DNA from: an uncultured Candidatus Saccharibacteria bacterium
GTDB taxonomy: Bacteria; Patescibacteriota; Minisyncoccia; CAIUEV01; JAHKAQ01
Reading direction: 5' to 3'
DNA length: 64,000 bases
NCBI GenBank assembly: GCA_964598205.1
Contig: CAZRBB010000005.1
Coordinates: 5,721 to 69,720 of the forward strand
In this document: positions 43,828 to 64,000 of the stretch, in pieces
Numbering within the stretch: position 1 is the stretch's first letter
Layout of the letters: every line of letters begins with the position of its first letter
The notes under the pieces: generated by a model
Told to the model about the DNA's origin: nothing
What the model saw: only the letters and a program-made list of their open reading frames with translations
The model's database searches: none
Position numbers and translations under genes: made by a program

Positions 43828-43839
43828 GGGAGATTAATT

Positions 43840-43995: not shown

Positions 43996-44100
43996 CTCTC
44001 TAGAATCCTAGCCTGCCTTGCTCAAAACGGCAAATTAACCTAACTTTAAGGCTAAAAAGAACCTTACCAACCACCAACCAAAACCCGAGGGAGGGCTATC

Positions 44101-44925: not shown

Positions 44926-45274
44926 AACCAGAACCTAAATCCAAAGACATTCCCAATTCGCTAAAAATCAATCAACCAACCCAACCTCAACCAAGAAGCG
45001 CTCTGTTCTAATTATTATCTTAGAAAAAAGCGCTTCTTTAATTTTCCCCCATTTCCCCTAATTCCTCTCCATATTCTCCTAAGAATCAAAGCCCTAATCT
45101 ACTATCCTCGCTTGGATTGCAAAAAAAACCTACAATTAAGCGTATTAATTCATGGTGCTATTTTTGAAGATAAGCCTTCGTATAGCCAGACTGCCAAGAA
45201 TAAAGAAATGTGCCAAACTCGTAAGTCCTTATTAATAGAATAAATGTTGTTCGGAATGACACTAACAGTGATTA

Positions 45275-45862: not shown

Positions 45863-45866
45863 GCTC

Positions 45867-46583: not shown

Positions 46584-46650
46584 GAAAGAAGCGTATTAAT
46601 AGACAGAGGAGCCTAGGAACCTCAAAAAATTTAAGCAATAATCAAAGCAA

Positions 46651-47049
46651 ATGAATCAAAGAAATAAATTAATCTTAGGAAGTATTATTGGTTTGGGAGT
46701 CGTTGCTTCCGCTTCCGCCTTCGCCCTTTCTTCTTTTAATAACGCCCAGGCAGAAACCAACGGTCCTGGCACTAGAATGGGACCCAACTATTCACCAGAA
46801 AGACACGCCCAAATGGAAGAAGCGTTTAATAACAATAACTATGCTCAGTGGAAAGAACTGCAAGGAAATCGTGGTCAAGTAAGCCAAGTAGTCAACGAAC
46901 AAAATTTTGCTCGGTTCGCCGAAGCCCATCGCTTAATGATTCAAGGTAAAACCGAAGAGGCCACTAAAATAAGAGCCGAATTGGGACTCAAGAATCAAGC
47001 AGGCGGAAGAATAAGAGATGGAGGTTGCAACTGCGCTAACCAAAAATAA
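46651..47049 (+). CDS. Small secreted protein with a C-terminal CNCANQK Cys motif
   Basis: 132 aa with a signal peptide (LILGSIIGLGVVASASAFA) and a hydrophilic body. It ends ...DGGCNCANQK. Confidence 0.4.
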   Translation: MNQRNKLILGSIIGLGVVASASAFALSSFNNAQAETNGPGTRMGPNYSPERHAQMEEAFNNNNYAQWKELQGNRGQVSQVVNEQNFARFAEAHRLMIQGKTEEATKIRAELGLKNQAGGRIRDGGCNCANQK

Positions 47050-47077
47050 ATTTTTTAGATATATCCTTTTTGTTTGG

Positions 47078-47110
47078 CACTCCCGGGTTTAAGCTCGGGA
47101 GTGTTTTTTT
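47078..47110 (+). terminator. Intrinsic terminator: GC-rich hairpin cactcccgggtttaagctcgggagtg followed by T7
   Basis: Read directly at the 3' end of the 46651..47049 gene. The hairpin overlaps the last codons of the convergent lgt gene. Confidence 0.65.
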
Positions 47111-47982
47111 ATTCCTTTTTTTTCCAACCGATTAATAAAAAACCAAAGAACCGCTCCTGTAATAATCATTAAAAAGCAAAGCAACTGCCCCAAACTCAAT
47201 TTACCCAAAAGAAAACCCAAATGCTCGTCTGGCTCTCGCCAAAACTCAATCACAAAACGAATCGTTCCATAACTAAAAAGATAAAGAGGCAATAAATAAG
47301 CTTTCGCCTTCTTCTTATTTCTTAAATTCCAAAGCAAAATAAAAATAAAAATACCTTCACCCAAGGCTTCGTAAAGTTGTGACGGATGCCGCAAAAAACT
47401 TTCTCCATCTAAAAAATAGGCATTGGGAAAATACATCCCCCAAGGTTTTTGAGTAACCCTCCCCCACAATTCACCATTAAAAAAATTGCCCATCCGCCCC
47501 CAAAAATAACCTAATGGCACGGCCGGTAAAATAAAATTAAGAGCCGAAAAAAAAGGTAAACCACTTTTTTTAGAATAAAACCAAAAAGCCAATAGACTTC
47601 CAATTAAACCGCCATGGTAACTCATTCCGTAAATCCCCCGATACCTAAATCCACCTTCCTCCCAAACAAATGGACTAAAAACGCCCAGCGGATGAGAAAA
47701 AAAACCAGATAAATCGTAGAAAAAAACATACCCTAGTCGTGCCCCTAAAATCAATCCCCCAAAAACCCAAAAAAGACTTTCTATTAATTTTTCACGATCC
47801 AAAGAAGAAGTATCTTTCCAAAAACGATACAGCACTAAAAGATAAACTGTAAAAAATCCCAAAAGATAGCCCATAAAATACCAACGCACCGTAAAAAATC
47901 CCCAGCTAAAAATCTCAGGATTAATTTTATACGGCAAGAATTGCCAAAAAGAAATCAGATTTTCCATTATGACATTAACCAT
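47089..47982 (-). CDS. lgt: Prolipoprotein diacylglyceryl transferase
   Basis: 297 aa polytopic protein with the Lgt signature GYFWGRMGNFFNGELWGR. Confidence 0.9.
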   Translation of the reverse strand: MVNVIMENLISFWQFLPYKINPEIFSWGFFTVRWYFMGYLLGFFTVYLLVLYRFWKDTSSLDREKLIESLFWVFGGLILGARLGYVFFYDLSGFFSHPLGVFSPFVWEEGGFRYRGIYGMSYHGGLIGSLLAFWFYSKKSGLPFFSALNFILPAVPLGYFWGRMGNFFNGELWGRVTQKPWGMYFPNAYFLDGESFLRHPSQLYEALGEGIFIFILLWNLRNKKKAKAYLLPLYLFSYGTIRFVIEFWREPDEHLGFLLGKLSLGQLLCFLMIITGAVLWFFINRLEKKGIKKHSRA

Positions 47983-49268
47983 TCCTCTTCCTGTCTAATC
48001 AATAAAGACGGAGCTTTGCTGGGATCTTCTAGAATTTCTTTTACAATTTTTTCCATCCGCATTCCCTGAGATCCCTTCACTAACGCTACCACCTTTTTAT
48101 CTAAGAGAAGTTTTAGGGCCTCAATCAATTCTTGCTGAGTTAAAAAATGTTCGGCTATTTTTTTATCAGAAGCACCAATTTTCTTCTTAACCATTCTATG
48201 AATTTCTAACGCCGCTTCTCCTATGGTAAAAATAACATCCGCCGAACCAGCCGCCGCCAGCCCTACCTCCCTATGAGCCAAAACTTCTTTTTCTCCCAAC
48301 TCAAGCATGTCTCCCAAAACAGCAATCCGCAAAACAGCCGGCGCTTCTTTTAGGATTTCTAAAGCATTGACCATTGATTTTGGCGCAGAAGCATTGTAAG
48401 TATCGTCTAAAACAATGCTCCCGTTCATTCCCTTTAAAATATTTAATCTCCCCCTAGGCGAGCGATATTTAGAAAGTGCTTCTCCAATCTCCAAAAGATT
48501 CATTCCTAAAGCCGTTCCCACTGCCGCTCCAGCCAAGACGGCGTAAATCTGGCTCCTTCCTAATGCTCCCCAAAGCCTAACCGGAATCACCCTCTCTTTA
48601 TACATCAATTTAAAGCTCATTCCCCATTCCTCGGGATGCGTAAAACGACCAAAATTTAGAATAAGATTAGAAGCCCTAATTAAATTTTTTTCTCCCAAAC
48701 CAAAAGTTAAGACAGCGGCCTTGGTTTTTCCTAGATTATTTATTAATCCCAAATCATCACCACAAACCACCGCCCAACCGTCAACTGGCAGATTTTTAAT
48801 GATTTCTGTTTTTTCGCTTAGTGTTGCTTCTAGGTTTTTAAAATATTTTAAATGACTAAAGGTAGCGTTGGTAATTACTGCTATTTTTGGTGGCGCTATT
48901 GCTACTAATTTTTTAATATCTCCTGGTTTTCCCGCTCCCATTTCTAAAATCAAAAACGGTTTTATTTTCTCTTTTCCAGAAGCAATATTCCTTAATTTTT
49001 TCAAAGCCCCTAACCAAAAAGCAGTATCTGTTTTTTTCCCCTCGGCAAATCCAGCAATCGCCAAAGGCAATCCTAGTTCGCTATTCAAACTTCCCCGAGA
49101 ACGAGAAACAGAAAAACGGCTTTTTAGGACAGTGTAAATTGCCTCTTTGGCGCTAGTTTTCCCCAAACTACCAGTTACCCCAACAATCAAAGGATTATTC
49201 TTTTCCACCGCTTTTTTAGCTAACCTCCCCGCTGACATTTCTACAATTTTTTTAAATACTTTTTTCAT
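47967..49268 (-). CDS. murF: Mur ligase, probably UDP-MurNAc-tripeptide--D-Ala-D-Ala ligase (short N-terminus)
   Basis: 433 aa. The P-loop is VGVTGSLGKTS, the central domain is Mur-ligase type, and DDTYNASAPKSM matches the MurF DDSYNANP motif. It overlaps lgt by 16 nt. Confidence 0.75.
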   Translation of the reverse strand: MKKVFKKIVEMSAGRLAKKAVEKNNPLIVGVTGSLGKTSAKEAIYTVLKSRFSVSRSRGSLNSELGLPLAIAGFAEGKKTDTAFWLGALKKLRNIASGKEKIKPFLILEMGAGKPGDIKKLVAIAPPKIAVITNATFSHLKYFKNLEATLSEKTEIIKNLPVDGWAVVCGDDLGLINNLGKTKAAVLTFGLGEKNLIRASNLILNFGRFTHPEEWGMSFKLMYKERVIPVRLWGALGRSQIYAVLAGAAVGTALGMNLLEIGEALSKYRSPRGRLNILKGMNGSIVLDDTYNASAPKSMVNALEILKEAPAVLRIAVLGDMLELGEKEVLAHREVGLAAAGSADVIFTIGEAALEIHRMVKKKIGASDKKIAEHFLTQQELIEALKLLLDKKVVALVKGSQGMRMEKIVKEILEDPSKAPSLLIRQEEEWLMS

Positions 49269-49320
49269 ATTTTTTTATTATTCCTTCTCTTTACCTTTTA
49301 CTCTTTATAAGCTCGCAATC

Positions 49321-51240
49321 TTACAAAGAGAATCCTTCTTGTCCCGCCGCTGCTTCTTCCCTAGCCTTCTTTAAATCTTCTTCGTTGAATTGCATTAAGC
49401 GATCGTAATATTGTTGCTCTTCTGGCTTAATCTCTTTGGTTGGGAAAATATGATAAAAATCGAGCAGAAAATTATTTAATTTTCCCGTAATCGGCGCCGC
49501 TGAGTCAGAAGAAAAATTAACTTTTCTTGCTCTATCCAATCGTACCAATGTTACAAACCGTGGATCTTCCGCCGGTCCAAAGCCCATGTAACTATGAATA
49601 GTATCATTCCCATATCCAGGACCGTCTAGATTAGGCATCTGTGCCGTCCCTGTTTTTCCGCCCACTTCATAACCGGGAATATTCGCTTTTTTACTCCAAC
49701 CATTCTTCACCACAGAAACCAACATCTCTCTCATTTTCTTAGAAGTCTCTGGGCTAATCACTCTCCTTTTTGCTTCTGGAAAAACTTTTTCAATTTTTCC
49801 GCCAGGATAAATAAAGCGTTCCACTATTTGCGGTTTCATTAATTCTCCTCCATTCACCACTGCCGAAAAAGCCGTAACCAACTGCAAAGAAGTCACCGAA
49901 ACGCCCTGACCAAAAGCAGAAGTGGCAAAATTAATATCCCGTAAAAATTTAAGATTAGCCAAATCTCCACTAGCTTCTCCCGTAAGCTCAATCCCTGTTG
50001 TTTCTCCAAAACCATATTTCTTTAAATAATCTAAGAATTTTTCCTTAGGAACAGATTGCATTGCCCAAATCGCTCCAGTATTTAAAGAAAGTTCCAAGGC
50101 TCGAGTAAGCGTTGTTTCTCCGTTAGCCACCATGTTTGCATTGTGAATATTAAACCCTCCCACCGAATAAACTCCTTTATCAAAATAAGTAGAATCCGGC
50201 TTTAATCCTCCTGCTTCTAGTGCAATAGAAAAGGTAAAAGGTTTAAAAATAGACCCCGGCTCAAACTGATAAGCAATACTATTATTCTTAAAAAGAGCAC
50301 TGTCTTCTACTAACCCAAAATCATTATTGTTAAATGTTGGCTGATTAGCCATGGCAATAATCGCTCCCGTTTTGGGATCCATCACTAAAATTGAACCAGA
50401 AGTGGCTTCATATTTAGCGAGCGATTCTTTTAAAAGTTTTTCTACAAAATACTGGACTGTTTGATCAATCGTTAAAACAATCTCTGCTCCATCCTTGGGT
50501 TGTTCTAGGACTCTTTCTTTAATAGGAATCCACCGGCCAGCAGTATCTTTTTCGGCTTTCATAAATCCCGACTCTCCTTCTAAAATATTGTTAAAATAGT
50601 TTTCAATCCCATAACGCCCCTCCCGTTTCTCTCCATTATTACCAACAAAACCCAGCACCTGAGAAAGAAATTCCCCCTCAGAATAATAGCGCCAATCTTC
50701 ACCTAAAAGCCCTACCCCCTTCATCTTTTTTTCTAAAAGCTGCCGAGATTCTTCTTTTGTTAACTTTTTTTTGATTACCTCATAAGGATCATTCTTCTTT
50801 AAAACTTTTTGTCTAATCCCCTCTTCATCCAAACTTAAAATCGTAGCCAGCGTTTTTACCGTTCCTTCAATATCTTCTATTTCTTTAGGCACAATAAAAA
50901 CTAAATCGCGTTTTTCATTAGTAGCTACCGGAATAAAATTATCCGTTCCATCTTTTAGGTAAACTTGCCCACGAGAAGGAGCTAATTGTTCAGAAAATTG
51001 ATACTGTTTCTGAGCTCTAGCACTTAGTATTTTTTGACTAAAAATCTGTAAAAAAAACAACCGTCCTCCAATAGTCAGTGTAGTAGTAAAAAAAAAGAAA
51101 ATAACTACCCAGCATCGCCAATCATTTTTTGGAGAAGCATTCCTCCCTCGCGATTTCTTTTCGTAAGAAACAGAAATCACCCCCGGCCGGCAATGTTTCA
51201 TTTTTAAGACCAGTCTTTTCTTTTTTTTGAATATCCTCAT
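49321..51240 (-). CDS. ftsI: Penicillin-binding protein 2 / FtsI-type transpeptidase
   Basis: 639 aa with an N-terminal TM and a dimerisation domain. The transpeptidase motifs are GSIFKPF (SxxK), SLN and GKTGTAQ (KTG). Confidence 0.9.
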   Translation of the reverse strand: MRIFKKKKRLVLKMKHCRPGVISVSYEKKSRGRNASPKNDWRCWVVIFFFFTTTLTIGGRLFFLQIFSQKILSARAQKQYQFSEQLAPSRGQVYLKDGTDNFIPVATNEKRDLVFIVPKEIEDIEGTVKTLATILSLDEEGIRQKVLKKNDPYEVIKKKLTKEESRQLLEKKMKGVGLLGEDWRYYSEGEFLSQVLGFVGNNGEKREGRYGIENYFNNILEGESGFMKAEKDTAGRWIPIKERVLEQPKDGAEIVLTIDQTVQYFVEKLLKESLAKYEATSGSILVMDPKTGAIIAMANQPTFNNNDFGLVEDSALFKNNSIAYQFEPGSIFKPFTFSIALEAGGLKPDSTYFDKGVYSVGGFNIHNANMVANGETTLTRALELSLNTGAIWAMQSVPKEKFLDYLKKYGFGETTGIELTGEASGDLANLKFLRDINFATSAFGQGVSVTSLQLVTAFSAVVNGGELMKPQIVERFIYPGGKIEKVFPEAKRRVISPETSKKMREMLVSVVKNGWSKKANIPGYEVGGKTGTAQMPNLDGPGYGNDTIHSYMGFGPAEDPRFVTLVRLDRARKVNFSSDSAAPITGKLNNFLLDFYHIFPTKEIKPEEQQYYDRLMQFNEEDLKKAREEAAAGQEGFSL

Positions 51241-51258
51241 TAAATAAAATCATTTGGT

Positions 51259-51705
51259 CTAAAATGTTGCTGCCTTTTTAATAACAGATTTTCCTCTAGT
51301 CTTGTAATGATCAACTCCTGACGACTCATCCCAGTCATAAGAATAATGAAGAATTTTTTCTTCTATTTCGTAGTAACTGATTTTTGCAGGGTCCACTTCC
51401 CACATATTTATCTTTTCTAAATTTTCTTTTATTTGATTAGTGGAACGCAACTTAGCCGCCTCCAATTCCAAGCTCGCCCTTTCCTTTTTTAGTTCAGACA
51501 ATTTATTATCATATTTTTCTATCTCGTAACCATAGGTCGCTGTCCGGTTAGCCTGAACCAAATAAAACAATGAAAGAAGGCAAATAATTAAAACAGTTGC
51601 CAAACCAACGGCCGTTGTTCCACATTTAAAAGGAAGACTAAGCCGTGAACAGCGAGCATTCCCCGGTTTAATTTTCTTTTTAAAAATATCAATTTTTTCT
51701 ACCAT
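51259..51705 (-). CDS. ftsL: FtsL/DivIC-like septum-formation protein
   Basis: 148 aa with a single TM and a coiled coil (ELKKERASLELEAAKLRS). It occupies the expected dcw-cluster position between rsmH and ftsI. Confidence 0.5.
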   Translation of the reverse strand: MVEKIDIFKKKIKPGNARCSRLSLPFKCGTTAVGLATVLIICLLSLFYLVQANRTATYGYEIEKYDNKLSELKKERASLELEAAKLRSTNQIKENLEKINMWEVDPAKISYYEIEEKILHYSYDWDESSGVDHYKTRGKSVIKKAATF

Positions 51706-51713
51706 TTTTATTT

Positions 51714-52637
51714 TTAGATCTTCTCTACTACTCTTAATTTGGCGCTCCGTGATCGAGGATTTTCTTTTCTTTCTTCCTCGCTCGGAGTTATTGGTTTTTT
51801 ATTTAGCCTTTTTAAAACTGGCCGATGACCGCAAGTGCATTGCCAAGCATCTTCTTCGCAAATACACCCTTGACTTTCCTTTCTAAAAAAATTCTTAACC
51901 AATCGATCTTCTAGGGAATGAAAGGAAATTATTCCTAATCGACCACCTTTTTTTAAACATCCCACCGCTTCCGGTAAAAATTCTTCCAAATTAGAAAGCT
52001 CCTTATTAACCGCAATCCTTAGTGCCATAAAAATCTTGGTCGCTGGATTAATTTTAAAATTTCGACTTTTCCCCTTGTAATGCTTTTCTATTAACTCTTT
52101 TAGCTCCTGCGATTTTTCCCAGAGCTTTCTTTTCCTCCGCTCAACAATTAATTTAGCTATCGGTTCTGCCTCCCTTTCCTCTCCATATTCCCTAAAAATC
52201 CGCACCAGTTCATTTTCTTTTTCTTCATTTAAAATTTCCGCAGCCGTCTTCTCTATTGAACTGTCTAATCGCAAATCCAGTTTTTCATCTTTTTGAAAAC
52301 TTAAGCCCGGAGTTCTTTCTAATTGATCAGAAGAAAATCCCAAATCCGCCAAAATCATTGATACTGATTCAATCTTTAATTTTTGAATGATCTTTTTAAT
52401 ATTTTTAAAATTCCCTAAAACTACCTTAAAATTTTTCCCAACTACCAATCTTTGACCAGCATTCTCCTGATCAAAGTCAATTCCCGCTACCATTCCCTCG
52501 GAACCAACTCTTTTTAAGATCTCCTTAGCATGACCGCCACCGCCCAAAGTACAATCCACAAAGATTTCCCCTTTCGCTGGATCAAGCAATTTCAAAACCT
52601 CCTCTAAAAGAACCGGGGAATGCTTTGTTTCTGGCAT
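51714..52637 (-). CDS. rsmH: 16S rRNA (cytosine1402-N4)-methyltransferase RsmH/MraW
   Basis: The motif HSPVLLEEV...FVDCTLGGGGHA is typical of RsmH. The track ORF extends to 52733, but the conserved protein starts at the internal M (MPETKHSPVLL, codon ending 52637), which abuts mraZ without overlap. Confidence 0.85.
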   Translation of the reverse strand: MPETKHSPVLLEEVLKLLDPAKGEIFVDCTLGGGGHAKEILKRVGSEGMVAGIDFDQENAGQRLVVGKNFKVVLGNFKNIKKIIQKLKIESVSMILADLGFSSDQLERTPGLSFQKDEKLDLRLDSSIEKTAAEILNEEKENELVRIFREYGEEREAEPIAKLIVERRKRKLWEKSQELKELIEKHYKGKSRNFKINPATKIFMALRIAVNKELSNLEEFLPEAVGCLKKGGRLGIISFHSLEDRLVKNFFRKESQGCICEEDAWQCTCGHRPVLKRLNKKPITPSEEERKENPRSRSAKLRVVEKI

Positions 52638-52639
52638 TC

Positions 52640-53074
52640 TTAGTAAGCTCCCAGTTCTCCTAATTTTTCTGCTACCTTTTCGGTATCTTTCTCCGCTTTT
52701 TCTTTGTAGGCTTTCCATTGTTTTTCTTCCCAAATTTCCAATCTATTAAAAAGTCCGTTGATCACCGCATTTTTTCCTAAAACAGCATAGTCCTTTAAAT
52801 ATTCAGGAATTAGAATTCTTCCCAATCCATCTAGTTTCACTTCCGAAGCTCCAGCTAACATTAAACGCACAAAACTACGAGTTCCTCCTTCTCCAATCGG
52901 CATCTTCCCTAACTTAAAAGCAATTTCTTCCCATGCTTTCTTGGAGTACAAAAACAAACAACGATCCAATCCCCTAGTAATAACGGCTGATCTACCCAGT
53001 TCATCTCTAAATTTAACCGGCACCGCCAACCTGTTCTTAGCATCTAAGTTATGACTGTACTCTCCAATAAACAT
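52640..53074 (-). CDS. mraZ: Transcriptional regulator MraZ
   Basis: 144 aa. MFIGEYSHNLDAKNRLAVPVKFR... is part of the duplicated MraZ domain. Confidence 0.9.
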   Translation of the reverse strand: MFIGEYSHNLDAKNRLAVPVKFRDELGRSAVITRGLDRCLFLYSKKAWEEIAFKLGKMPIGEGGTRSFVRLMLAGASEVKLDGLGRILIPEYLKDYAVLGKNAVINGLFNRLEIWEEKQWKAYKEKAEKDTEKVAEKLGELGAY

Positions 53075-53184
53075 TCTGGAATATTAACACTTTTACCCAC
53101 TTTTAAACACTTAAAAACATTTTAACCCACAATAAAAAGAGAGTCAACTAAGAACAATCAGAACCGTTTTTCCCAAAAAGCGCC

Positions 53185-54036
53185 TTATTTTTTAATTTTT
53201 GACTTTTTTCCTAAAGAAAGAGAAAGAGCTTTTATTTGTTTATCTTTTTGATTCAATTGATCTTCAAAAAAGATAAGGTTTCTAGTCACCTCTTCTTTCA
53301 TTCCTTGCTTTTCTTTTTCTAAAATTTTAGTCTTTAGTGAAAGTTTTTTATTATTTTTTTGAAGCATTGCTAAATCTTCTTGTAGCGCAGAAACAGCCAA
53401 GCTATGAGCCATAATAGCCGCTTTTAATTCTTTTTCCCGTCCCGAAAGTGCCTCTTCTAAAAAACTCATTTCTTTCTTCCAAGAACTTTTTTGACTATTT
53501 AAATTTCCTTCTTTTTCTAAAAAACTTTTCCTCTCTCTTGCCACTTCACTCTTTAGCTCATCATTTTTTTTCCTCGCTACTAACAGCTCTTTTTCTAATA
53601 CTATCTTTGCAATTTCCCCTTCTTTCTTTTGATTTTCCTCTTTTTTCCGCAACTCTTTTTTAAAAAAAAGTAATTGCTCCGCCTTTGCGGAACTTTCTTT
53701 TAAAGTTTCTAACCGATTAATATTTTCTCCTATTAGTTGATCCTTCTTCTTTAATTCTTCTTCTAAAACATTAAGACTTTCCTTGACCAAACTTTCTAAC
53801 TTTTCCTTTTCTTCCCTTACTTTTTGAATCTCTGTAGAGAGTTTTTTTTGATTCGCCTTCTTTTTTTTATTCTTAATCTCTGTCTTTATCTTTTTCTCTT
53901 GGGGAAAAATTTTAGTTTCCACGGCAAAGCCCCAATCAATAAGAACCGTCCCCTTCTCTTTATCTTTTTGACTCTTGCAAAAATGAGTCTCCCCTTTTTG
54001 GTATTTACCCAAATCTTTTGTAAATTTAATCAACAT
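53185..54036 (-). CDS. Hypothetical K/E-rich coiled-coil protein
   Basis: 283 aa with a globular N-terminal ~45 aa followed by a continuous heptad-like charged coiled coil. Confidence 0.4.
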   Translation of the reverse strand: MLIKFTKDLGKYQKGETHFCKSQKDKEKGTVLIDWGFAVETKIFPQEKKIKTEIKNKKKKANQKKLSTEIQKVREEKEKLESLVKESLNVLEEELKKKDQLIGENINRLETLKESSAKAEQLLFFKKELRKKEENQKKEGEIAKIVLEKELLVARKKNDELKSEVARERKSFLEKEGNLNSQKSSWKKEMSFLEEALSGREKELKAAIMAHSLAVSALQEDLAMLQKNNKKLSLKTKILEKEKQGMKEEVTRNLIFFEDQLNQKDKQIKALSLSLGKKSKIKK

Positions 54037-55810: not shown

Positions 55811-56776
55811 ATGCCCACACTACAACTCTATTCTAATTGGTGGTGGATTCGTTTTCTTTTAACACAAAAGTGCAACCAAAAATGCCCCGACTGTTCTCTT
55901 TGTGAGCTTAAAAAAAACAAGGATGATTTTATAGATCCCAAAAAAATTATTGATGCTTTTAGAGTCTTTTCTCTTTGGGGTTATCGGAATGTCACTCTTT
56001 ACGGAGGAGAACCACTGCTTCATCCTTCTTTCCTTAATATTTACAACAAAGCTCAGCACTTTTTCCCAAATATCCAAGTATTTACCAACGGAACAATTAC
56101 CTTCCCAATAAAAATTGTTCCTAGAAAAACAGATTTTTTTATTTTCAATTTTGACTTTAATAAAAATAAAACCTTTATTAAAAATGTTTTCTTTTTAAGG
56201 AAAAATATTCATCCTCACTTGAATTTTAGCATTATTGTTCAGAAAGAAACCGATATTAATCAATTAAAAGCTGATTTGAATTTTTTTGTTAAAAACAATC
56301 TTCAGGATTTTTCTGTTCGTATTTCCATGAACTGTTTTGCAGATATCCTAAAAGAAAAGAAAATTCTTAATCAGAAAATAGTCAGTTTAATAGGCGTTCT
56401 GCAAGAATTGGGTATCCCTTGTGGAATGGCACAAAAAATCCCTCTCTGTTTTTTTCTTTTTCCACTAAAAAAAATCATTAAGTCAACAGTGAATCCCTTT
56501 TGTGGGAAAGAATGTGGTGGTCTTATAGACCCGAATTTTAATATTTTATCTTGTGGAGCGCTATATCGTTACGAGATTAACCCTAGAGATATTAAACCAA
56601 AAAATATGTTTTATAAAAACAAAATTATTTCTCGCAAAAAACATCAAGAAGTGCTTAAACAAATTCTTAAAATTAAATTAAAAAGAAAATCTCCTGATCC
56701 AAAATGCCAAGCTTGCGAATACTACAAAAGAAGAGATTGTGACAGTACCGGCTGTTTTCCTTATACTAAACCATAG
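55811..56776 (+). CDS. Radical SAM protein with a Cys-rich SPASM/twitch-like C-terminal region
   Basis: 321 aa. FLLTQKCNQKCPDC provides the CxxxCxxC motif, and GGEPLLHP is the SAM-binding GGE motif. The C-terminus carries CGMAQKIPLC...CGKECGG...SCGALY...CQACEYYKRRDCDSTGC. It lies 7 nt downstream of the S66 gene. Confidence 0.75.
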   Translation: MPTLQLYSNWWWIRFLLTQKCNQKCPDCSLCELKKNKDDFIDPKKIIDAFRVFSLWGYRNVTLYGGEPLLHPSFLNIYNKAQHFFPNIQVFTNGTITFPIKIVPRKTDFFIFNFDFNKNKTFIKNVFFLRKNIHPHLNFSIIVQKETDINQLKADLNFFVKNNLQDFSVRISMNCFADILKEKKILNQKIVSLIGVLQELGIPCGMAQKIPLCFFLFPLKKIIKSTVNPFCGKECGGLIDPNFNILSCGALYRYEINPRDIKPKNMFYKNKIISRKKHQEVLKQILKIKLKRKSPDPKCQACEYYKRRDCDSTGCFPYTKP

Positions 56777-56781: not shown

Positions 56782-58488
56782 TCATTTCTGTTTTTCTTTA
56801 TTCACTTTTTTCTCTTTTTTATTTTTAAATTTATCAACAATTATTTTCTTTACCATTATTAACCAAGGAAAAAATAAAGTCACCCCCAAAAGCGTCCAAA
56901 AAACTCTCCTATTAAACTGGTCACGGAGACAGACCACTCCTTCAATTTTTTTACAATCATAAATCTCTTTCATTGTCTTTTTTGATTCTCCCTTACTATT
57001 GTAAGAACTTACTTCTAATTCTAAATAATCAAGGTCTTTTGGAGCTTTAATCTTATTCCTCCATCCCTTTATCACTCCGTCTATTTTCCCCACATAAACA
57101 GCTCTTCCAATTTCTCCTCCTTCTTTGTCTTTTAATAAAAGTTCTATTCTTGAAACATTATTTTCATTGGCTAGTGATTGTTTTTTTTGAATATCCTGAA
57201 AAAATTCATATAAACTTAAATCAAAAAAACCCGTAAAAAGATCCACCGTTTCTCCTTTTCTTATTGGAAATTTATTAATACCAGTACCAATTAAACATGG
57301 CACATCTCCTTTATACTCAAGAAAGATCGGAAAATAAACAATATATTTCCTCCCTTCGCCTTCAATTAAAACCTGGAGAGAGGAGCCACCAAAAGTATTG
57401 TCCGCTCCATAAAATCCCTTCTCCTTAAAAGTTTTTTGAGCCCTCTCAATATAATCGTCCAAATTGAACTCATGAGAAACTTCTTCTGTTGACCTTGGTT
57501 TTACTGCAAAAGAACGCCTTTCGGCAATTTCGTTCAAATCCTTATCCAAGCCCGCAAATCTTCCGCCAAAAAAATTAATCAAATCATAACGAACATTAAA
57601 ATTCTTTGCTTCTTGTGAATTATTAAACATTTTAAAACGAACTGTTACCTGAGAATAGCTAATAATATTCTGGATATTTTTGATAAAAAATCTATTCTCT
57701 TTATTTATCATTTCAAAATCAAAACCCCCATCCTTGGAAACCAAGCCAAAACTTTTATCACCCTTTAATACGGAAAAAATAAAAGAACCTCTAGAAAGTT
57801 TTGGGAGCCACTGACGAGGATTAGCATAAAGCATGGAACCCTCAAGTCTCCGCGAAACACTACTATCAACAGCTCCTACATCTAAGGAATAATTTCCTGG
57901 GGGAATATTTTCTGGAATAGTGTATAAAAAAGAAATCTTCTTTTCCCTTCCCCCTGTCAAATCAAAAGAATTGGGAGTTATTAGAAATAAATCATTCAAC
58001 AATTCAGTAGGATAATAATTTGCACCTAGTGTCTTTAATGATCCATGAATTTTTATATTAACTAACGGATAGCTTTCTGGATTTTTTAATAAAATATTCA
58101 AAATAATCTTCTCCCCACCTTTTAGCTCTTTATTGTTTTTATCACCATTCTCTTTTACTGCAGAAACTAGCTCAAGAACAGATTGCTGATTGGATTTTTG
58201 ATACCCCGCTCTATTTACCAATTCTCCAAGATAAAAAGGTTCACCAATAGACCCTTCCCTTACATAATTCCCTCCCAAACCAAAAGAAGGATCTTTTAGC
58301 AAAAAAGCATCAGGGGCCAGTCGTTCATTTTTTATAATTTCGTTCTTGTGATTACGAAAATACAGAACGAGAAAAACGATTAGTATCCCAATTGAAAGAA
58401 CAGTAAGTACTTTCTGCCAAGCAAGTATTTTTTTTACTTTTTTGTCTTTATTCATAAGACCGCTTAATAAAAAGTATCTAAGGGACAT
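56782..58488 (-). CDS. Paralog 1 of a three-member family of bitopic (TM at both ends) surface/extracytoplasmic proteins
   Basis: 568 aa. The likely true start is at M12 (MNKDKK, ~58455), by alignment with the paralog N-termini. It has an N-terminal TM, a large hydrophilic body sharing blocks with 58498..60054 and 61315..63000, a conserved C-terminal YDCKKIEGVVCLRDQFNRRVFW, and a second TM. Confidence 0.6.
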   Translation of the reverse strand: MSLRYFLLSGLMNKDKKVKKILAWQKVLTVLSIGILIVFLVLYFRNHKNEIIKNERLAPDAFLLKDPSFGLGGNYVREGSIGEPFYLGELVNRAGYQKSNQQSVLELVSAVKENGDKNNKELKGGEKIILNILLKNPESYPLVNIKIHGSLKTLGANYYPTELLNDLFLITPNSFDLTGGREKKISFLYTIPENIPPGNYSLDVGAVDSSVSRRLEGSMLYANPRQWLPKLSRGSFIFSVLKGDKSFGLVSKDGGFDFEMINKENRFFIKNIQNIISYSQVTVRFKMFNNSQEAKNFNVRYDLINFFGGRFAGLDKDLNEIAERRSFAVKPRSTEEVSHEFNLDDYIERAQKTFKEKGFYGADNTFGGSSLQVLIEGEGRKYIVYFPIFLEYKGDVPCLIGTGINKFPIRKGETVDLFTGFFDLSLYEFFQDIQKKQSLANENNVSRIELLLKDKEGGEIGRAVYVGKIDGVIKGWRNKIKAPKDLDYLELEVSSYNSKGESKKTMKEIYDCKKIEGVVCLRDQFNRRVFWTLLGVTLFFPWLIMVKKIIVDKFKNKKEKKVNKEKQK

Positions 58489-58497
58489 TCTTGTTGA

Positions 58498-60054
58498 CTA
58501 GTCACGAAGACAAGCCACTCCTTCAATCTTTTTGCAATCGTAAATCTCTTCCGTTGTTTTATCTAATTTCCCTTGATTGTTATAAATGCTCGCCGTTAAC
58601 TCTAAATAATCAAGGTCTTTTGGAGCTTTAATCTTATTCCTCCATCCCTTTGTTGATCCGTCTATTTTCCCCACATAAACAGCTCTTCCAATTTCTCCTC
58701 CTTCTTTGTCTTTTAATAAAAGTTCTATTCTTGAAACATTATTTTCATTGGCTAATACTTGCTTCTCTTTGCTATTTTGAAAGGATTGAGACAATCTTAA
58801 ATCAAGAAAGCCTGTAAAAAGATCTACCGTTTCTCCTTTTCTTATTGGAAATTTACTAATATTGGGAACAGTCAAGCAAGCCGCATACCCCTTAAATTCA
58901 CGAAACAGGGGAAAGTAAACAATATATTTTCTTCCTTCGCCCTCAATTAAAATCTGGAGAGAAGAGAATCCAAAAATATTATCCGCCCAAGAAAAATCCT
59001 TATCATTAAAAGATTTTTGAGCCCTTTCAATATAATCGTCCAAATTGAACTCGTGAAAAACTTCTTCTGTTGACCCTGGTTTTACTGTAAAAGAACGCCT
59101 TTCGGCAATTTTGTCCAAGTCTTTATTAAAATCCATAAACAATCCACCGGCAAGATTAATTAAATCATAACGAACACTAAAATTCTTTGCTTCTTGTGAA
59201 TCATTAAACATTTTGAAACGAACCCCTACTTGAGGATAACTAACAATATTCCAAGAACTTTTTAATGAAAATTTGTTCTCTTTGTTTATTATTTCAAAAT
59301 CAAGATCCCCATCCTTAGAAACCAAGCCAAAACTTTTATCACCATCTAGCACGGAAAAAATCAAAGAACCTTTAGGCGGCTTCTTCCACCCCCAATTACG
59401 ATAAAAAGTGAAACCGGCCAAATAACGATGATTATTCCCCTCAGTGGCTCCCAATTCTAAGGAATAATTTCCTGGAGGAATATTTTCTGGAATAGTGTAT
59501 AAAAAAGAAATCTTTTTTTCCTTTCCCCCTGCTAAATCAAAAGAATTGGAAGTTATTAGAAAAAAATCATTCAAAAAACTGGTTGGAAGATTTTTATCGC
59601 CCACTATCCCTCTTAGAACCCCAGCAATTTTTATATTAACTAACGGATAGTTTTCTGGATTTCTAAATAAAATATTTAGAACAATCTTCTCCCCACCTTT
59701 TAGCTCTTTATTGTTTTTATCACCATTCTCTTTTACTGCAGAAACTAGCTCAAGAACAGATTGCTGATTGGATTTTTGATACCCCGCTCTATTTACCAAT
59801 TCTCCAAGATAAAAAGGTTCACCAATAGACCCTTCCCTTACATAATTCCCTCCCAAACCAAAAGAAGAATCTTTTAGCAAAGATGATTCAGGAGAAACAA
59901 AAGACTCTTTTTCAAAAATCAATCTTTTGCGACTGCGAAAAAAAAGAACGAGAGAAGCAACTAATACCAAAACCAAAAAAACAACAAATATCTTTCGCCA
60001 AAAAAAAACATTTTTTAATTTTACTTCTTTCTCTTTATTTTTTATTATATCCAC
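58498..60054 (-). CDS. Paralog 2 of the surface-protein family, lacking the C-terminal TM
   Basis: 518 aa with the same N-terminal TM and conserved blocks. It ends ...YDCKKIEGVACLRD* at a TAG that is in frame with the start of paralog 1. Confidence 0.6.
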   Translation of the reverse strand: MDIIKNKEKEVKLKNVFFWRKIFVVFLVLVLVASLVLFFRSRKRLIFEKESFVSPESSLLKDSSFGLGGNYVREGSIGEPFYLGELVNRAGYQKSNQQSVLELVSAVKENGDKNNKELKGGEKIVLNILFRNPENYPLVNIKIAGVLRGIVGDKNLPTSFLNDFFLITSNSFDLAGGKEKKISFLYTIPENIPPGNYSLELGATEGNNHRYLAGFTFYRNWGWKKPPKGSLIFSVLDGDKSFGLVSKDGDLDFEIINKENKFSLKSSWNIVSYPQVGVRFKMFNDSQEAKNFSVRYDLINLAGGLFMDFNKDLDKIAERRSFTVKPGSTEEVFHEFNLDDYIERAQKSFNDKDFSWADNIFGFSSLQILIEGEGRKYIVYFPLFREFKGYAACLTVPNISKFPIRKGETVDLFTGFLDLRLSQSFQNSKEKQVLANENNVSRIELLLKDKEGGEIGRAVYVGKIDGSTKGWRNKIKAPKDLDYLELTASIYNNQGKLDKTTEEIYDCKKIEGVACLRD

Positions 60055-60110
60055 AAAAATCTAATAATCTATTGCTAAAGAAGCTCTAAAAAAATTATTT
60101 ATGTTTTTCT

Positions 60111-61337
60111 TTATCCCTTTGGTCCACCGTTCTGGTAGGTACTCGCTAAAAATCCTTCGGCAAAGAAATTAGTCTCTCCGTCTATCTTCCAAAGATTAAA
60201 GGTTCGTATTTTCTTTTTTAGTTCCTTAATTTTTACTATCTTAATCCACTCTTTCTTTAGACTAAAAAGCTCGTCTCCTTCTTTTAATTCAAAAGGATTT
60301 TTAACATGAGTAGCAATCTTACATTTTTTAAAATTCTTTTTACTCAAAACACCCCAACCAATTTTATCTTTCTTTTTTGAATACAATGGGTGCTCTGCAG
60401 ACACTACTAATCTTTTACCGTTTTCCATTAGTAATTCAAACATGTCTTCCCGTTGAGCAGTGGTAATAGTTCTAATAACTTTTTTTTCTAATTTATTTTC
60501 ATTAACATTGTAAGAAACCACCTTTTGTCCAATTTTTAATTTATCAATAGGAAGAGACTTGTTTTCGTAAAGAGCAATTTTGGTATTACTAGCAAAGCAT
60601 TGGTCACTGCCGCTATCGGCTGTGGTGCAGTTGGTGGTGTAATCGATGGAGGTAGTGGAGGTAGTTTCGGTAGTGGAGGTAGTTTCGGTAGTGGAGGTAG
60701 TTTCGGTAGTGGAGGTAGTTTCGGTAGTGGAGGGGGCGGGAATGTAGAGGTAGTAGAGGTAGTAGTAGTAGTCGTAGGTGTCGGAGTAGGTGTTGGAGTA
60801 GGTGTTGGAGTAGGTGTTGGAGTAGGTGTTGGAGTAGGTGTTATGATAATTATTAACATACTGGCTGGTAGTGGCGGTAGTGGCGGTAGTGGCGGTAGTG
60901 GCGGTAGTTTCGGTGAAGGTAGTGGAGGTAGTGGAGGTAGTGGAGGTAGTGCTGGTAGTGGCGGTAGTACAGTCGCAATCACAGGTTGTTCCTGCTGGAG
61001 TAATTGTTGGATACGCTTCATCCCAAGAACTAGCACTCCCTGTCCAACTACCACTGTTCGTAGGAACAGCATAAACCCTGTCCCCTTTAAACAATTGACT
61101 AACGCTGCTTAATAAAACATCATCGTTCTGGTGAACCCGATGAACCATAAAAGTATAATCCGTCCTTGCAGAATAATTAAAACCAGCGGAAATATTACTT
61201 CCAGTGCAGGAAGAACTTGCAGATTGATTGGTAGGAGAAGCCGCTAAGACGCTCTCCCCCTTTTCTTGATTCTTAGAAGCCAAAAAAGAAGAAGCGCAGA
61301 GAAGAGAAATAAGTTTAGCAATGTCCCTTTTTTTCAT
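60111..61337 (-). CDS. Secreted Ser/Thr-rich tandem-repeat protein with a C-terminal Hint (Hedgehog/intein-like) domain
   Basis: 408 aa with a signal peptide, then repeats (TTS)n, (TTA)n, (YSNT)5, YYYYLYYLY and (TTETTS)4. The Hint-like domain runs CFASNTKIALYENKSLPIDKLKIGQKVVSYN...VVSAEHPLYS...KEGDELF...TFNLWKIDGETNFFAEGFLASTYQN. Confidence 0.65.
   Translation of the reverse strand: MKKRDIAKLISLLCASSFLASKNQEKGESVLAASPTNQSASSSCTGSNISAGFNYSARTDYTFMVHRVHQNDDVLLSSVSQLFKGDRVYAVPTNSGSWTGSASSWDEAYPTITPAGTTCDCDCTTATTSTTSTTSTTSTTFTETTATTATTATTATTSQYVNNYHNTYSNTYSNTYSNTYSNTYSDTYDYYYYLYYLYIPAPSTTETTSTTETTSTTETTSTTETTSTTSIDYTTNCTTADSGSDQCFASNTKIALYENKSLPIDKLKIGQKVVSYNVNENKLEKKVIRTITTAQREDMFELLMENGKRLVVSAEHPLYSKKKDKIGWGVLSKKNFKKCKIATHVKNPFELKEGDELFSLKKEWIKIVKIKELKKKIRTFNLWKIDGETNFFAEGFLASTYQNGGPKG
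60648..60960. repeat. Perfect in-frame coding tandem repeats (18-nt x4, 15-nt x5, 9-nt x7) inside the Hint-protein gene
   Basis: ggaggtagtttcggtagt repeats 4 times at ~60648-60735. gtaggtgttggagta repeats 5 times at ~60774-60843. ggtagtggc/ggtagtgga repeats 7 times at ~60866-60960. These produce ORFs in all frames (60536..61072, 60600..61112, 60871..61074). Confidence 0.9.
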
Positions 61338-63000
61338 TTTTCTTTTTTAATTTATCAACGATAATTAAGGCTAGCACTAAACCGGAGAAAAATAAAGTCA
61401 CTCCTAAAAGCGTCCAAAGAACTTTCCGGTTAAACTGGTCACGGAGACAAACGGCTCCTTCAATCTTTTCACAATCGTAGACATCTTTCATTGTCCTTTC
61501 CAATTCCCCTTGATTGTTATAAATACTCATCGTTAACTCTAAGTAATCAAGATCATTTTGAACTTTTATTTTATTTCTCCAACCTTTTGTTACGCCATCA
61601 ACCTTTCCTATATAAACGGTCCTTCCTATTTCATTTCCATCTTTATCTTTTAATAAGAGCTCTATTTTAGAAACATTGTTTTCGCTAGCTAATGATTGCT
61701 TTTTTTGAATATCTTGGAAAAATTCAAACAACATTAAATCAAAAAAACCCGTGAAAAGATCCACCGTCTCCCCTTTTTTTATAGGGAATTTACTAATACC
61801 AAAATTATGCGAATATGTCCCTGCCATTTCAAATTCAAGATACAAAGGAAAGTAAACAATATATTTTCTTCCTTCACCCTCAATTAAAACCTGAAGAGTA
61901 GAAGAACTAAAAGAATTATCCGCCCAATAAAATCCCTTTTCCCTAAAAGCTTTCTGAGCCCTTTTAATGTAGTCTTCCAGATTAAACTCATGAAGAACTT
62001 CTTCGGTTGATCTCGGTTTTACCGTAAAAGAAGCCCTTTCGGGAACTTTGTCTAAATCCTTATCCAGATCCGCAAATATTCCACCAAAAAGATTAATTAA
62101 ATCATAACGAACACTAAAATTCTTTGCTTCTTGTGAATCATTAAACATTTTAAAACGAACCCCTACTTGAGGATAGCTAATAATAATCCAAGGATTTTTT
62201 AATGAAAATTTATTCTCTTTGTTTATCACTTCAAAATCAAGATCCTCATCCTTAGAAACCAAGCCAAAACTTTTATCACCATCTACTACGGAAAACACCA
62301 AAGAGGTTCTGCCAACCTGTATCTCCCGATCGATATAAACAAAACCACTTCCATCTAAATATCGCAAAGCATTACTATCAACGGCTCCTACACCTATAGA
62401 GTATTCTCCCGGAGAAATGTTTTCTGGAATAGTATATGGAAAAGAAATCTTCTTTTCCATTCCTCCCGCCAAACTAAAAGAATTAGGAGTTATTAAAAAG
62501 AAATCATTCAGCAATTTAGTAAGTCTGCCTGCATGTCGCGTCTTTAATGCTCCATGAATTTTTATATTAACTAACGGATAGCTTTCTGGATTTTTTAATA
62601 AAATATTCAAAATAATCTTCTCCCCACCTTTTAGCTCTTTATCGTTTTTTATATCACCATTTTCATTTTCTACAGAAATTAGTCTGAGTATAGCTTGATT
62701 TTTGCGGTTTTTCCACCATCCTCTATTTATCAATTCTCCAAGATAAAAAGGTTCACCAATAGACCCCTCTCTTACATAATTCCCTCCCAAACCAAAAGAA
62801 GGATCTTTCGATAAAGATGTTTCATGAGAAACAGAAGTCTCTTTTCTAAAAATTCCGCTTTTACGATTGCGAAAGAAAAGAACAAGAGAAGCAACTAATA
62901 CCAAAACCAAAAAAACAACAAATATCTTTCGCCAAAAAAAAATATTTTTTAGCTTCCCTTTTTCATCTCCACTTTCGTTTTTGTTTTTGTTTTTGTCCAT
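61315..63000 (-). CDS. Paralog 3 of the bitopic surface-protein family
   Basis: 561 aa with an N-terminal TM (FFWRKIFVVFLVLVLVASLVLFF, identical to paralog 2). It has conserved blocks and a C-terminal YDCEKIEGAVCLRDQFNRKVLW followed by a TM. Confidence 0.6.
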   Translation of the reverse strand: MDKNKNKNESGDEKGKLKNIFFWRKIFVVFLVLVLVASLVLFFRNRKSGIFRKETSVSHETSLSKDPSFGLGGNYVREGSIGEPFYLGELINRGWWKNRKNQAILRLISVENENGDIKNDKELKGGEKIILNILLKNPESYPLVNIKIHGALKTRHAGRLTKLLNDFFLITPNSFSLAGGMEKKISFPYTIPENISPGEYSIGVGAVDSNALRYLDGSGFVYIDREIQVGRTSLVFSVVDGDKSFGLVSKDEDLDFEVINKENKFSLKNPWIIISYPQVGVRFKMFNDSQEAKNFSVRYDLINLFGGIFADLDKDLDKVPERASFTVKPRSTEEVLHEFNLEDYIKRAQKAFREKGFYWADNSFSSSTLQVLIEGEGRKYIVYFPLYLEFEMAGTYSHNFGISKFPIKKGETVDLFTGFFDLMLFEFFQDIQKKQSLASENNVSKIELLLKDKDGNEIGRTVYIGKVDGVTKGWRNKIKVQNDLDYLELTMSIYNNQGELERTMKDVYDCEKIEGAVCLRDQFNRKVLWTLLGVTLFFSGLVLALIIVDKLKKKNEKKGHC

Positions 63001-63150
63001 AAATAAAAATAAAATAAAGTAAGATAAAATAAAACCCTACCAAAATTACACTACAAATATACCATGCCCCACATTTTCTAGCAAATTAATCATCCTTCTC
63101 AGTCGTACTTTATTCATGTAGAATCACTAAGACAATAAAAAGCCCAAAAA

Positions 63151-64000
63151 ATGGAAAAATTTTTCTCAAATTTAATATCCCCTTTCCGCTCAACAATAAA
63201 AAAGAAGATTAGATTCAAGAAAGAAATCTTCACCAATACTCTAAAAATTAATTTAACTCAAAGCTGCAATCAAGAACATCTTTCTTGTTACTCTAAATGC
63301 CCAGAAGAAAACAACAACACTTTCATAAAAAAAGAGAAATTACTAAAAACAATGAAAGAATTCTCTTTTTGGGGGTTAAAGAGAATTTCCTTTTCAGGAG
63401 GAGAGCCCTTGCTTCATCCGGACTTCTTTTTTATTTATAACCAAGCCCAAATACTATTTGAAGAAGTTCGAGTTTCCACTAATGGAACCATTCCCCTACA
63501 AGGAGAGCTGGTAGCTAGACAAAGCGATGTCTTTATTTTTAATTTTAAATTTTCAAAAGATGAAAATTTTATTAGAAACTTACATTTACTAAACAATAAA
63601 ACAAACCCTAAAATATTATTCAACATTTTAATAGAAAAAGACACTAACATTCCTCTTTACAAGGAACAGATTCTCCTTTTAAAAAACATTAATTTAAAAA
63701 GAATACTCTTTTCTCTTTCCTTTGATTCCAAAAAAAACATTAACCAAGAAAAAGAAATTCTTAACGAAAAAACTTTTGAAATAGTTAATTTCATTTATAA
63801 CAATAGACAGAATTGCATTCTTCATCAAAGAGTTCCTTACTGCTTTCTCCTTCCAAAATTAAAAGAATTACTAAAAATAAAGACTCCCCAAGGCTATAGC
63901 CTAGAATGCTTAGGAATGCTGGATCACAATTTCAACATCTACCCCTGCCCTCAACACCACCAAGAAAAAAATCCCAAAAACATGTTTTCTAAAAACGACA
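63151..64000 (+). CDS. Divergent paralog of the 55811..56776 radical-SAM protein with a non-canonical Cys spacing (3' end beyond the window)
   Basis: ATG is at 63151 and no stop occurs before 64000, which is why it is missing from the ORF track. The translation runs MEKFFSNL...INLTQSCNQEHLSCYSKCPEEN...FSGGEPLLHPDFFFIYNQAQ...FIFNFKFSKDENF...CFLLPKLKELL...ECLGMLDHNFNIYPCPQ. It is clearly homologous to rSAM1 (GGEPLLHP, FIFNF(D/K)F, NMF(Y/S)KN), but the cluster motif is Cx6Cx3C. Confidence 0.65.
   Translation, partial: MEKFFSNLISPFRSTIKKKIRFKKEIFTNTLKINLTQSCNQEHLSCYSKCPEENNNTFIKKEKLLKTMKEFSFWGLKRISFSGGEPLLHPDFFFIYNQAQILFEEVRVSTNGTIPLQGELVARQSDVFIFNFKFSKDENFIRNLHLLNNKTNPKILFNILIEKDTNIPLYKEQILLLKNINLKRILFSLSFDSKKNINQEKEILNEKTFEIVNFIYNNRQNCILHQRVPYCFLLPKLKELLKIKTPQGYSLECLGMLDHNFNIYPCPQHHQEKNPKNMFSKND

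Follow-up and report, generated by a model that had tools for sequence, protein, structure and literature searches.

Three tandem paralogous genes of an uncultured Candidatus Saccharibacteria bacterium, designated here P1, P2, and P3, are mosaics of one another, and the mosaic is the product of repeated exchange among the three copies rather than of selection or chance. The genes lie in a 64,000-nucleotide (nt) stretch of contig CAZRBB010000005.1 (NCBI assembly GCA_964598205.1, positions 5,721 to 69,720), referred to here as the window. Between window positions 56782 and 63000, the list of open reading frames (ORFs) contains four co-oriented genes on the minus strand in the order P3, a Hint-domain gene that is not a paralog, P2, and P1, and the P1, P2, and P3 proteins are 68 to 71% identical to each other. 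Three tandem paralogs had been proposed in a first-pass annotation made from the letters of the sequence, and all three are present. Gene conversion among paralogs is an already known process of which these genes are a further case, and ectopic gene conversion very probably explains the mosaic of the family.

Exchange of segments among P1, P2, and P3

When the three genes are codon-aligned and each variable site is classed by which two copies agree, the three possible groupings receive near-equal support, with 161 to 179, 114 to 128, and 139 to 144 supporting sites. The sites fall into 182 to 195 runs, where ∼284 to 288 are expected (z = -9.5 to -10.4), and the longest runs span 23 to 28 sites, compared with a maximum of 15 across 10,000 permutations. 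Sawyer-type tests of the longest concordant runs, using all sites, are significant for each pair (P1-P2, p < 1e-4; P1-P3, p = 0.003; P2-P3, p < 1e-4). By sliding-window identity, the closest pair switches at least 10 times along the genes: P2 is nearest to P3 over the N-terminal transmembrane (TM) segment, P1 is nearest to P2 at alignment columns 66 to 120 and nearest to P3 at columns 121 to 150, and the switching goes on over the remaining gene length past column 150.

A history with no recombination, in which purifying selection and codon constraint produced the shared blocks and relaxed constraint the divergent segments, is extremely improbable. The long blocks do encode segments conserved in all three proteins, such as SFGLGGNYVREGSIGEPFY, but the agreeing pair changes in long runs, and since constraint sets whether sites vary and not which pair agrees, the clustered switching points to recombination. 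The clustering is also kept in a runs test restricted to 106 synonymous differences in codons that specify the same residue in all three proteins (z = -4.6, with no permutation as extreme). Synonymous divergence (pS) for one pair ranges from 0.04 to 0.11 in some segments to 0.68 to 0.80 in others, and at columns 446 to 485 it is 0.11 for P1-P2 but 0.79 for P1-P3, an ∼7-fold difference within one segment. This synonymous-site evidence rules out selection as the sole cause. The first-pass annotation had read the mosaic as gene conversion or cassette variation, and the first of these readings holds up on the equally supported groupings in long runs, the synonymous clustering, and the spread of pS from 0.04 to 0.8.

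The same mosaic is present in Joint Genome Institute (JGI) contigs of other samples, apart from one tract of P1 at 58166-58230. Because it is common to independent JGI assemblies, the mosaic is not an artefact of the window assembly, and all of the recombination statistics hold when the JGI allele of P1 is substituted for that of the window.

An exact-match scan of the three paralogs locates the shared blocks, all on the minus strand, and permutation tests place their lengths far above chance given a background divergence of ∼17 to 30%. P1 and P2 share a 98-nt block (57076-57173, matching 58657-58754) and an adjoining 51-nt block (57020-57070, matching 58601-58651), both present in all assemblies, together with a block of 185 nt (58105-58289, matching 59683-59867) that is exact in the window assembly only. 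A 92-nt block is common to P1 and P3 (58042-58133, matching 62551-62642) in all assemblies, with further P1/P3 blocks of 36 to 38 nt at 62731-62808, and these correspond to the near-identical block in the third paralog described in the first-pass annotation. P2 and P3 share 63 nt (59152-59214, matching 62089-62151) and 58 nt (59951-60008, matching 62885-62942), the latter covering the N-terminal TM segment FFWRKIFVVFLVLVLVASLVLFF, which is the same in the P2 and P3 proteins, as had been observed earlier.

Other details of the earlier description need adjustment. An identity of ∼185 nt between P1 and P2 corresponds to the exact 185-nt block, with coordinates that were 2 to 4 nt off, but it is interrupted in the JGI contigs. 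A second identity of ∼95 nt has a counterpart in the 98-nt block, although the two intervals quoted for it are ∼20 nt out of register and agree at 25 of 95 bases. The central part of the proteins (residues 150 to 330) was called highly divergent, and divergence is present there, but it is confined to short patches amid well-conserved stretches. Over the whole length, divergence is concentrated in five short patches, at residues ∼96 to 115, 149 to 166, 205 to 240, 391 to 410, and 421 to 445, with a conserved framework between them.

The largest shared block and comparison across assemblies

The P1 protein recovered from JGI data in a homologue search (P0002) departs from that of the window precisely within the 185-nt block. 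Global alignment with JGI contigs from three samples (L001, L002, and L003, from samples 3300045131, 3300044991, and 3300044951) places the difference in a 65-nt tract at 58166-58230 on the minus strand, with 23 substitutions. Compared over 12.7 kb and 6.7 kb, the contigs of 3300045131 and 3300044991 match the window except at two sites, one being this tract and the other an additional 12-nt unit in a repeat of the Hint-domain gene; L003 (3300044951) carries the same divergent P1 tract as the other two samples. The JGI allele has a P1-specific tract that encodes GWWRKRNDQDTLILA and is closest to P3; in the window the tract has the sequence of P2 and encodes AGYQKSNQQSVLELV. With the JGI allele, the exact P1/P2 blocks in this region are only 59, 21, and 61 nt long. 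The 12-nt tandem array (60774-60842, minus strand), identified with Tandem Repeats Finder (TRF), has a perfect run of 60 nt in the window and 72 nt in the JGI contigs, and with one fewer unit the Hint protein of the window has 408 amino acids (aa), compared with 412 aa in the JGI contigs. The array difference would reflect either slippage or a small-k assembly collapse.

These differences stand out against a nearly invariant background. JGI and Logan contigs match the window at 100% identity from 14557 to 36662 and from 37393 to 53827, and over the ∼48.7 kb compared, the window differs from the other assemblies solely at the 65-nt tract and the one tandem-repeat unit. At least six other samples are 100% identical over tens of kilobases (window 14557-64000; contigs L001, L087, L088, L089, and L091 to L095), the identical samples being JGI 3300045131 and 3300044991 and Logan SRR12261224, SRR12261227, SRR35365835, SRR35365870, and SRR35365923. 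Judged by these contigs, the organism is an essentially clonal population across many samples.

The divergent P1 allele surely exists, because it is a unique sequence found in three assemblies; the P2-like allele rests on one contig, that of the window. The 185-nt block represents either a very recent P2-to-P1 conversion, with a tract of 65 to 185 nt, or an assembler collapse, and the two are about equally probable. Collapse would make this block an artefact within a mosaic that is otherwise real. At k of 55 or less, a de Bruijn graph would show the 65-nt middles of P1 and P2 as a bulge between their common flanks, and an assembler that masks strain variants would project one path onto the other; a small k would also drop the 12-nt unit. 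The distribution of alleles fits such an origin, with the divergent tract in three JGI assemblies and the P2-like tract in the window contig alone, and with the window and JGI contigs otherwise identical over ∼48.7 kb. So does the local geometry: the flanks of 59 and 61 nt are just over k = 55, and this is the only site in P1, P2, or P3 with two common blocks of at least 55 nt near each other. Shortening of the array from 72 to 60 nt is exactly what a k = 55 loop gives along its shortest path (72 > k+p-1 = 66; exit at k+5 = 60), and metaSPAdes is stated to collapse larger bulges aggressively for consensus building (PMC5411777).

Other considerations weigh against collapse. Both the value k = 55 and the assembler of the source contig are assumptions, and the NCBI contig, at 116,983 nt, exceeds the JGI contigs in length and spans their break point, which is no sign of a poorer assembly. 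True conversion together with true slippage would yield these exact two differences, and both are expected to be the fastest classes of mutation in a clonal population. The first-pass annotation had named assembly collapse or duplication as grounds for abandoning its claim; this holds plausibly for the largest block and not for the remainder of the mosaic. Since assemblers can manufacture such blocks between paralogs, claims of mosaicism from a single contig of a metagenome-assembled genome (MAG) should be checked against other assemblies or against the reads. A real P1 tract would make the locus the sequence that changes fastest in a population otherwise clonal, and a natural marker of interaction with host or phage.

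Mechanism and comparison with known gene families

The history most consistent with these patterns is one in which P1, P2, and P3 would have arisen by tandem duplication, specific to this lineage, of a gene for a rare cell-surface protein, and in which, after duplication, homologous recombination between the direct repeats would have repeatedly copied tracts of ∼60 to 300 nt from one copy to another. The process would be non-reciprocal ectopic gene conversion, presumably RecA-dependent, with each gene becoming a patchwork of segments with differing nearest relatives while a few short loop-encoding patches stay divergent. The mosaic would then mainly represent concerted evolution of co-transcribed paralogs, in which surface loops are shuffled incidentally and not by programmed switching. 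The mechanism (conversion as opposed to repeated unequal crossing-over), the surface location of the proteins, and any adaptive value are what we infer from the sequences.

Four considerations weigh against conversion. No recA or other recombination gene lies in the window, nor is recA among the genes of its flanks, and the machinery is assumed. There are three sequences only, in which conversion is inseparable from repeated unequal crossing-over with gain and loss of copies. The consensus sequences of three to five samples are otherwise identical in the paralogs, with no direct sign of continuing exchange, and the sole candidate for a recent event coincides exactly with the k = 55 de Bruijn collapse target described above.

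Repeated unequal crossing-over, generating single-breakpoint chimeras along with changes in copy number, is an improbable main cause of the mosaic. The copies are direct tandem repeats, and a deletion at the P2/P1 junction took the tail of P2 and fused its relic to the start region of P1, both of which fit this process. However, at least 10 switches of topology within 1.6 kb, many of them delimiting segments of just 60 to 150 nt, would require many rounds of expansion and contraction, every one of which must keep three copies and the intervening Hint-domain gene. In the candidate recent event, moreover, only an internal patch differs and the flanks on either side are unchanged, a pattern that is the signature of conversion or of a double crossover.

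Ectopic conversion could also operate as part of a programmed system, and the first-pass annotation had likened the mosaic to antigenic or surface-variation families. A cassette-type system of antigenic or phase variation, with one expressed paralog, the others acting as donors, frequent unidirectional segmental conversion, and heterogeneity within the population, is quite unlikely here. Several features are compatible with it: the products are predicted surface proteins with divergent patches in predicted loops or turns, the most variable patch (residues 213 to 229) having a predicted local distance difference test (pLDDT) score below 50; P2 has no C-terminal anchor and could serve mainly as a donor; and there is one possible conversion compared with zero point substitutions in 48.7 kb. 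The variable patches mostly have ratios of nonsynonymous to synonymous divergence (pN/pS) of 0.2 to 1.1, and one small patch (columns 96 to 115, JGI allele of P1 versus P3) has 10.5 nonsynonymous (Nd) versus 0.5 synonymous (Sd) differences, although three sequences are too few to give this much weight.

The structure of the locus argues in the other direction. No promoterless or truncated cassette arrays were found, and blastn and tblastn searches of the window plus 10 kb beyond it (74 kb in total) recovered no extra or partial paralog copies. Each of the three genes has a start codon, encodes an N-terminal anchor, and is probably co-transcribed with the other two. There is no G-quadruplex (G4) motif in the 55- to 64-kb part of the window, no inverted repeats of at least 30 nt or flanking short direct repeats were found, and the neighbouring genes include no recombinase and, among those annotated with Pfam, no reverse transcriptase. 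The whole-gene ratio of nonsynonymous to synonymous substitution rates (dN/dS) among the paralogs is 0.30 to 0.42, and all but one of the variable patches have pN/pS below ∼1. Assemblies of several samples read through the locus and give the same consensus, with contigs of three to five samples identical at the paralogs apart from the one tract, and in distant relatives there are no cassette families but one or two copies that diverge strongly (29% identity in locus L005). With these elements missing, the ORFs intact, and dN/dS at 0.3 to 0.4, neither programmed antigenic variation nor that part of the earlier interpretation is supported. A diversity-generating retroelement was also considered and rejected, there being no reverse transcriptase among the neighbours and the 23 substitutions in the tract being of all types.

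It is unlikely, too, that the trio forms a working surface-variation module of an episymbiotic Patescibacteria-type bacterium in which conversion runs orders of magnitude faster than point mutation. Were this the case, exposed loops would be remodelled in a protein acting with a self-cleaving secreted Hint partner and radical S-adenosylmethionine (radical-SAM) enzymes, and the locus would constitute an undescribed cell-surface system with built-in variability, in which a tract of 65 to 185 nt has changed against no substitution in ∼48.7 kb.

In pathogens, gene conversion between paralogs that encode surface proteins is textbook knowledge. It is hardly documented in uncultivated ultra-small bacteria, whose lifestyle relies on cell-surface contacts, and a literature search on gene conversion among paralogs of Patescibacteria found no paper combining the three topics. 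In the babA/babB/babC genes of Helicobacter pylori and the opa genes of Neisseria, intact and expressed paralogs exchange internal segments by homologous recombination to give mosaic genes. The P1 to P3 locus is similar in its conserved framework blocks, variable predicted surface patches, full-length paralogs, and lack of silent cassettes. The bab and opa genes, however, are dispersed, code for beta-barrel outer-membrane proteins, and often undergo repeat-mediated phase variation, whereas P1, P2, and P3 are tandem and probably co-transcribed, are predicted to code for beta-sandwich proteins anchored by TM helices, and have no on/off repeat tract seen in the paralogs.

Neisseria pilE/pilS, Borrelia vlsE/vls, Treponema tprK, and Mycoplasma genitalium mgpB/MgPar are the cassette-type systems of antigenic variation. 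They share with P1 to P3 the non-reciprocal transfer of short tracts and the use of conserved flanks as recombination substrate, but are built on one expression site and usually many promoterless, truncated donors, often with cis elements and with heavy heterogeneity within populations. No such donors or cis elements are found at the P1 to P3 locus, and at the level of consensus sequences the samples differ at one tract of the paralogs only. The tufA/tufB pair represents RecA-dependent conversion leading to concerted evolution of duplicated housekeeping genes. As in tufA/tufB, blocks are homogenised in P1 to P3 and synonymous divergence is reset to zero inside the tracts; unlike tufA/tufB, which are near-identical throughout, homogenisation here is patchy and divergent patches persist. 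By analogy, the locus would appear to behave like babA/babB or opa exchange, or plain concerted evolution, and not like pilE/pilS or vlsE.

Locus organization, protein architecture, and the Hint-domain partner

P3 (61315-63000, minus strand, as are the other three genes) codes for 561 aa and is the first gene of the apparent operon; its protein is unchanged between the NCBI and JGI contigs. The Hint-domain gene (60111-61337, 408 aa) overlaps the P3 stop by 23 nt and is followed by P2 (58498-60054, 518 aa), which has a GTG start and codes for an N-terminal TM segment without a C-terminal one. The mechanical ORF of P1 spans 56782-58488 (568 aa), and the start called by both JGI and NCBI is the ATG at 58455, which gives a gene at 56782-58455 and a 557-aa product, the length of both the JGI (P0002) and NCBI (P0006) proteins. 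A three-way DNA alignment of the gene tails shows that P2 stops at a TAG where P1 and P3 read CAG, and that a deletion follows which removed the C-terminal TM region. About 28 nt of the old P2 tail, whose homologue in P1 and P3 is the QFNR..W.. region, persist after the P2 stop and before the P1 start (58470-58497, minus strand), and because the ATG at 58488 falls within this relic, the P1 start at 58455 is the more credible.

The intergenic gaps are -23 nt (P3/Hint), 56 nt (Hint/P2), and 9 to 42 nt (P2/P1), and no terminator-like sites were found between the four genes. A consensus scan identifies a promoter-like site at 63056-63084 on the minus strand (TTGCTA-17-TATATT with a TG extension) that precedes the P3 start by 56 nt. 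No other promoter candidate lies upstream of the four-gene block, and this one constitutes weak evidence, promoter-like matches across the region showing no enrichment over shuffles. From this arrangement, P3, the Hint-domain gene, P2, and P1 likely form a single operon. It is bordered by two paralogous radical-SAM genes with 37% identity, at 55811-56776 (plus strand) and 63151-64000 (plus strand, running beyond the window end), which have an orthologue in locus L006.

Hydropathy identifies two hydrophobic segments in P3 (residues 17 to 47 and 526 to 552), and the protein consists of an N-terminal TM segment, an ∼470-aa beta-sandwich ectodomain, a C-terminal TM segment, and a basic tail. P1 is full length with both TM segments, of which the N-terminal one is divergent, and P2 has a single hydrophobic segment at residues 13 to 43. 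Basic flanks at both ends suggest an N-in, C-in topology with most of the protein extracellular. An AlphaFold model built from a 10-sequence alignment (pLDDT, 77; predicted template-modeling score [pTM], 0.73) predicts four beta-sandwich domains between an initial and a terminal TM helix, with the most variable patch, residues 213 to 229, as a low-confidence loop; a 4-sequence alignment gave an unusable model (pLDDT, 41.6). Foldseek matches are to macroglobulin (MG)/immunoglobulin (Ig)-like arrays, including complement C5 and C4, alpha-2-macroglobulin, and the C-terminal Ig-like domains of transglutaminase, but TM-scores of only 0.13 to 0.24 make the MG/Ig fold assignment generic. The predicted string of four beta-sandwich domains resembles MG2/DUF4625/CARDB-like arrays, although, unlike in the MG families, there is no thioester or bait region, and those families lack double TM anchoring.

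Scanned against Pfam and NCBIfam, the paralogs match no family above threshold, with only sub-threshold matches to DUF4625 and DUF2002; DUF4625 is weak in P1 and P3 (15.8 to 17.6 bits, cut-off 27). MG2 has no match in the window proteins, and one distant relative (P0011) passes the Pfam MG2 cut-off (33.2 versus 32.8 bits). The protein family is rare: an exhaustive hidden Markov model (HMM) search of 1.84 billion representative proteins yielded 89 matches at E <= 1e-3 and 4 at E <= 1e-30. Word-indexed searches with P3 and with a 10-sequence profile returned just the three paralogs, and in collections of genome and metagenome contigs neither the family alignment nor a P1-specific 38-mer found anything. 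Among the weaker matches, ∼80 proteins (P0019 to P0095), many of them 850 to 1,450 aa long and with LVIVD, PKD, fn3, or InlB B-repeat domains, align to the last two beta-sandwich domains and the C-terminal TM region only (profile positions ∼370 to 555). Their alignments suggest a widespread C-terminal anchoring module common to large surface proteins.

The Hint-domain protein has a signal-peptide-like N terminus, a conserved N-domain, Thr/Ser/Tyr-rich tandem repeats, and then CFASNT... and a C-terminal Hint module. The 408-aa protein matches Pfam Hint (E value, 1.8e-7; 31.4 bits versus a cut-off of 29.7), as well as Vint and Intein_splicing, and the module resembles the Hint domains of PDB entries 6y75 and 6tmm. 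As in the secreted bacterial intein-like (BIL) and Hint proteins, the C-terminal module of the partner starts with Cys (QCFASNT) and holds an xxEH motif; unlike in those proteins, it is terminal and not inserted in a host protein, and any cleavage or ligation chemistry is putative. Most orthologues of the partner end in ...FLASTY(D/E/Q) and not in HN. Perfect tandem arrays of 12-, 18-, and 9-nt units in the gene (60774-60842, 60647-60733, and 60862-60968, respectively) encode TTS/TYSN/TTE repeats. Two long ORFs overlap the repeats, one Pro/Leu-rich (60536-61072, minus strand) and one Gly/Ser-rich (60600-61112, plus strand), and are low-complexity repeat shadows, not genes.

A homologue of the Hint-domain gene lies next to or near the family gene in every distant locus recovered (L005, L006, L096, and L098). 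In L005 the family gene is followed by the Hint gene (1703-2653) and then by another family copy, which has no TM segment and shares 29% identity with the first. The L098 family gene precedes a Hint gene (11604-12521) whose product ends in a canonical VHN and a Cys/Gly-rich tail, that of L096 precedes a gene for the N-domain only, without a Hint module (3055-3513), and in L006 the Hint gene (13611-14513) is two genes away. The partner proteins have a conserved N-domain of ∼120 aa, a Cys/Thr-rich linker, and usually a C-terminal Hint module starting with Cys. The loci of these relatives indicate that the family-Hint-family order is old and that the three ∼70% identical copies and their homogenised blocks are lineage-specific. 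The family gene and its Hint partner look like a conserved, undescribed two-protein surface module.

These loci are usually found among several radical-SAM/SPASM-like genes, some of them twitch-like, and in L005 and L006 with a gene for a pyrroloquinoline quinone (PQQ)-type beta-propeller. The radical-SAM-rich regions are at 4076-10304 in L005, at 5216-9927, 11623-12996, and 14616-16253 in L006, and at 1715-9122 and 13138-14106 in L098. An NCBIfam scan of the radical-SAM neighbours gave no family above cut-off, and a literature search on Hint domains together with radical-SAM clusters found nothing relevant. As a lead, the conserved pairing with Hint partners within radical-SAM-rich clusters stands apart from the mosaic and may be the more original of the two.

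Elsewhere in the window, the UvrA protein is closest (57 to 58% identity) to those of Patescibacteria/Parcubacteria MAGs, making the host probably a member of the Candidate Phyla Radiation (CPR) with no close genome representative. Sample 3300045131 has two contigs that break off at window positions 36662 and 37393, in each case within a gene for a 406-aa AAA_14/DUF4143 protein (36533-37753, minus strand) that is bridged by the window contig and may be a multi-copy or variable genomic element. A 578-aa ORF at 34706-36442 (minus strand) has a weak NCBIfam match, far below threshold, to the Mycoplasma MG_279/MG_280 two-TM family (27.8 bits, cut-off 125), and its product may be a further membrane protein.

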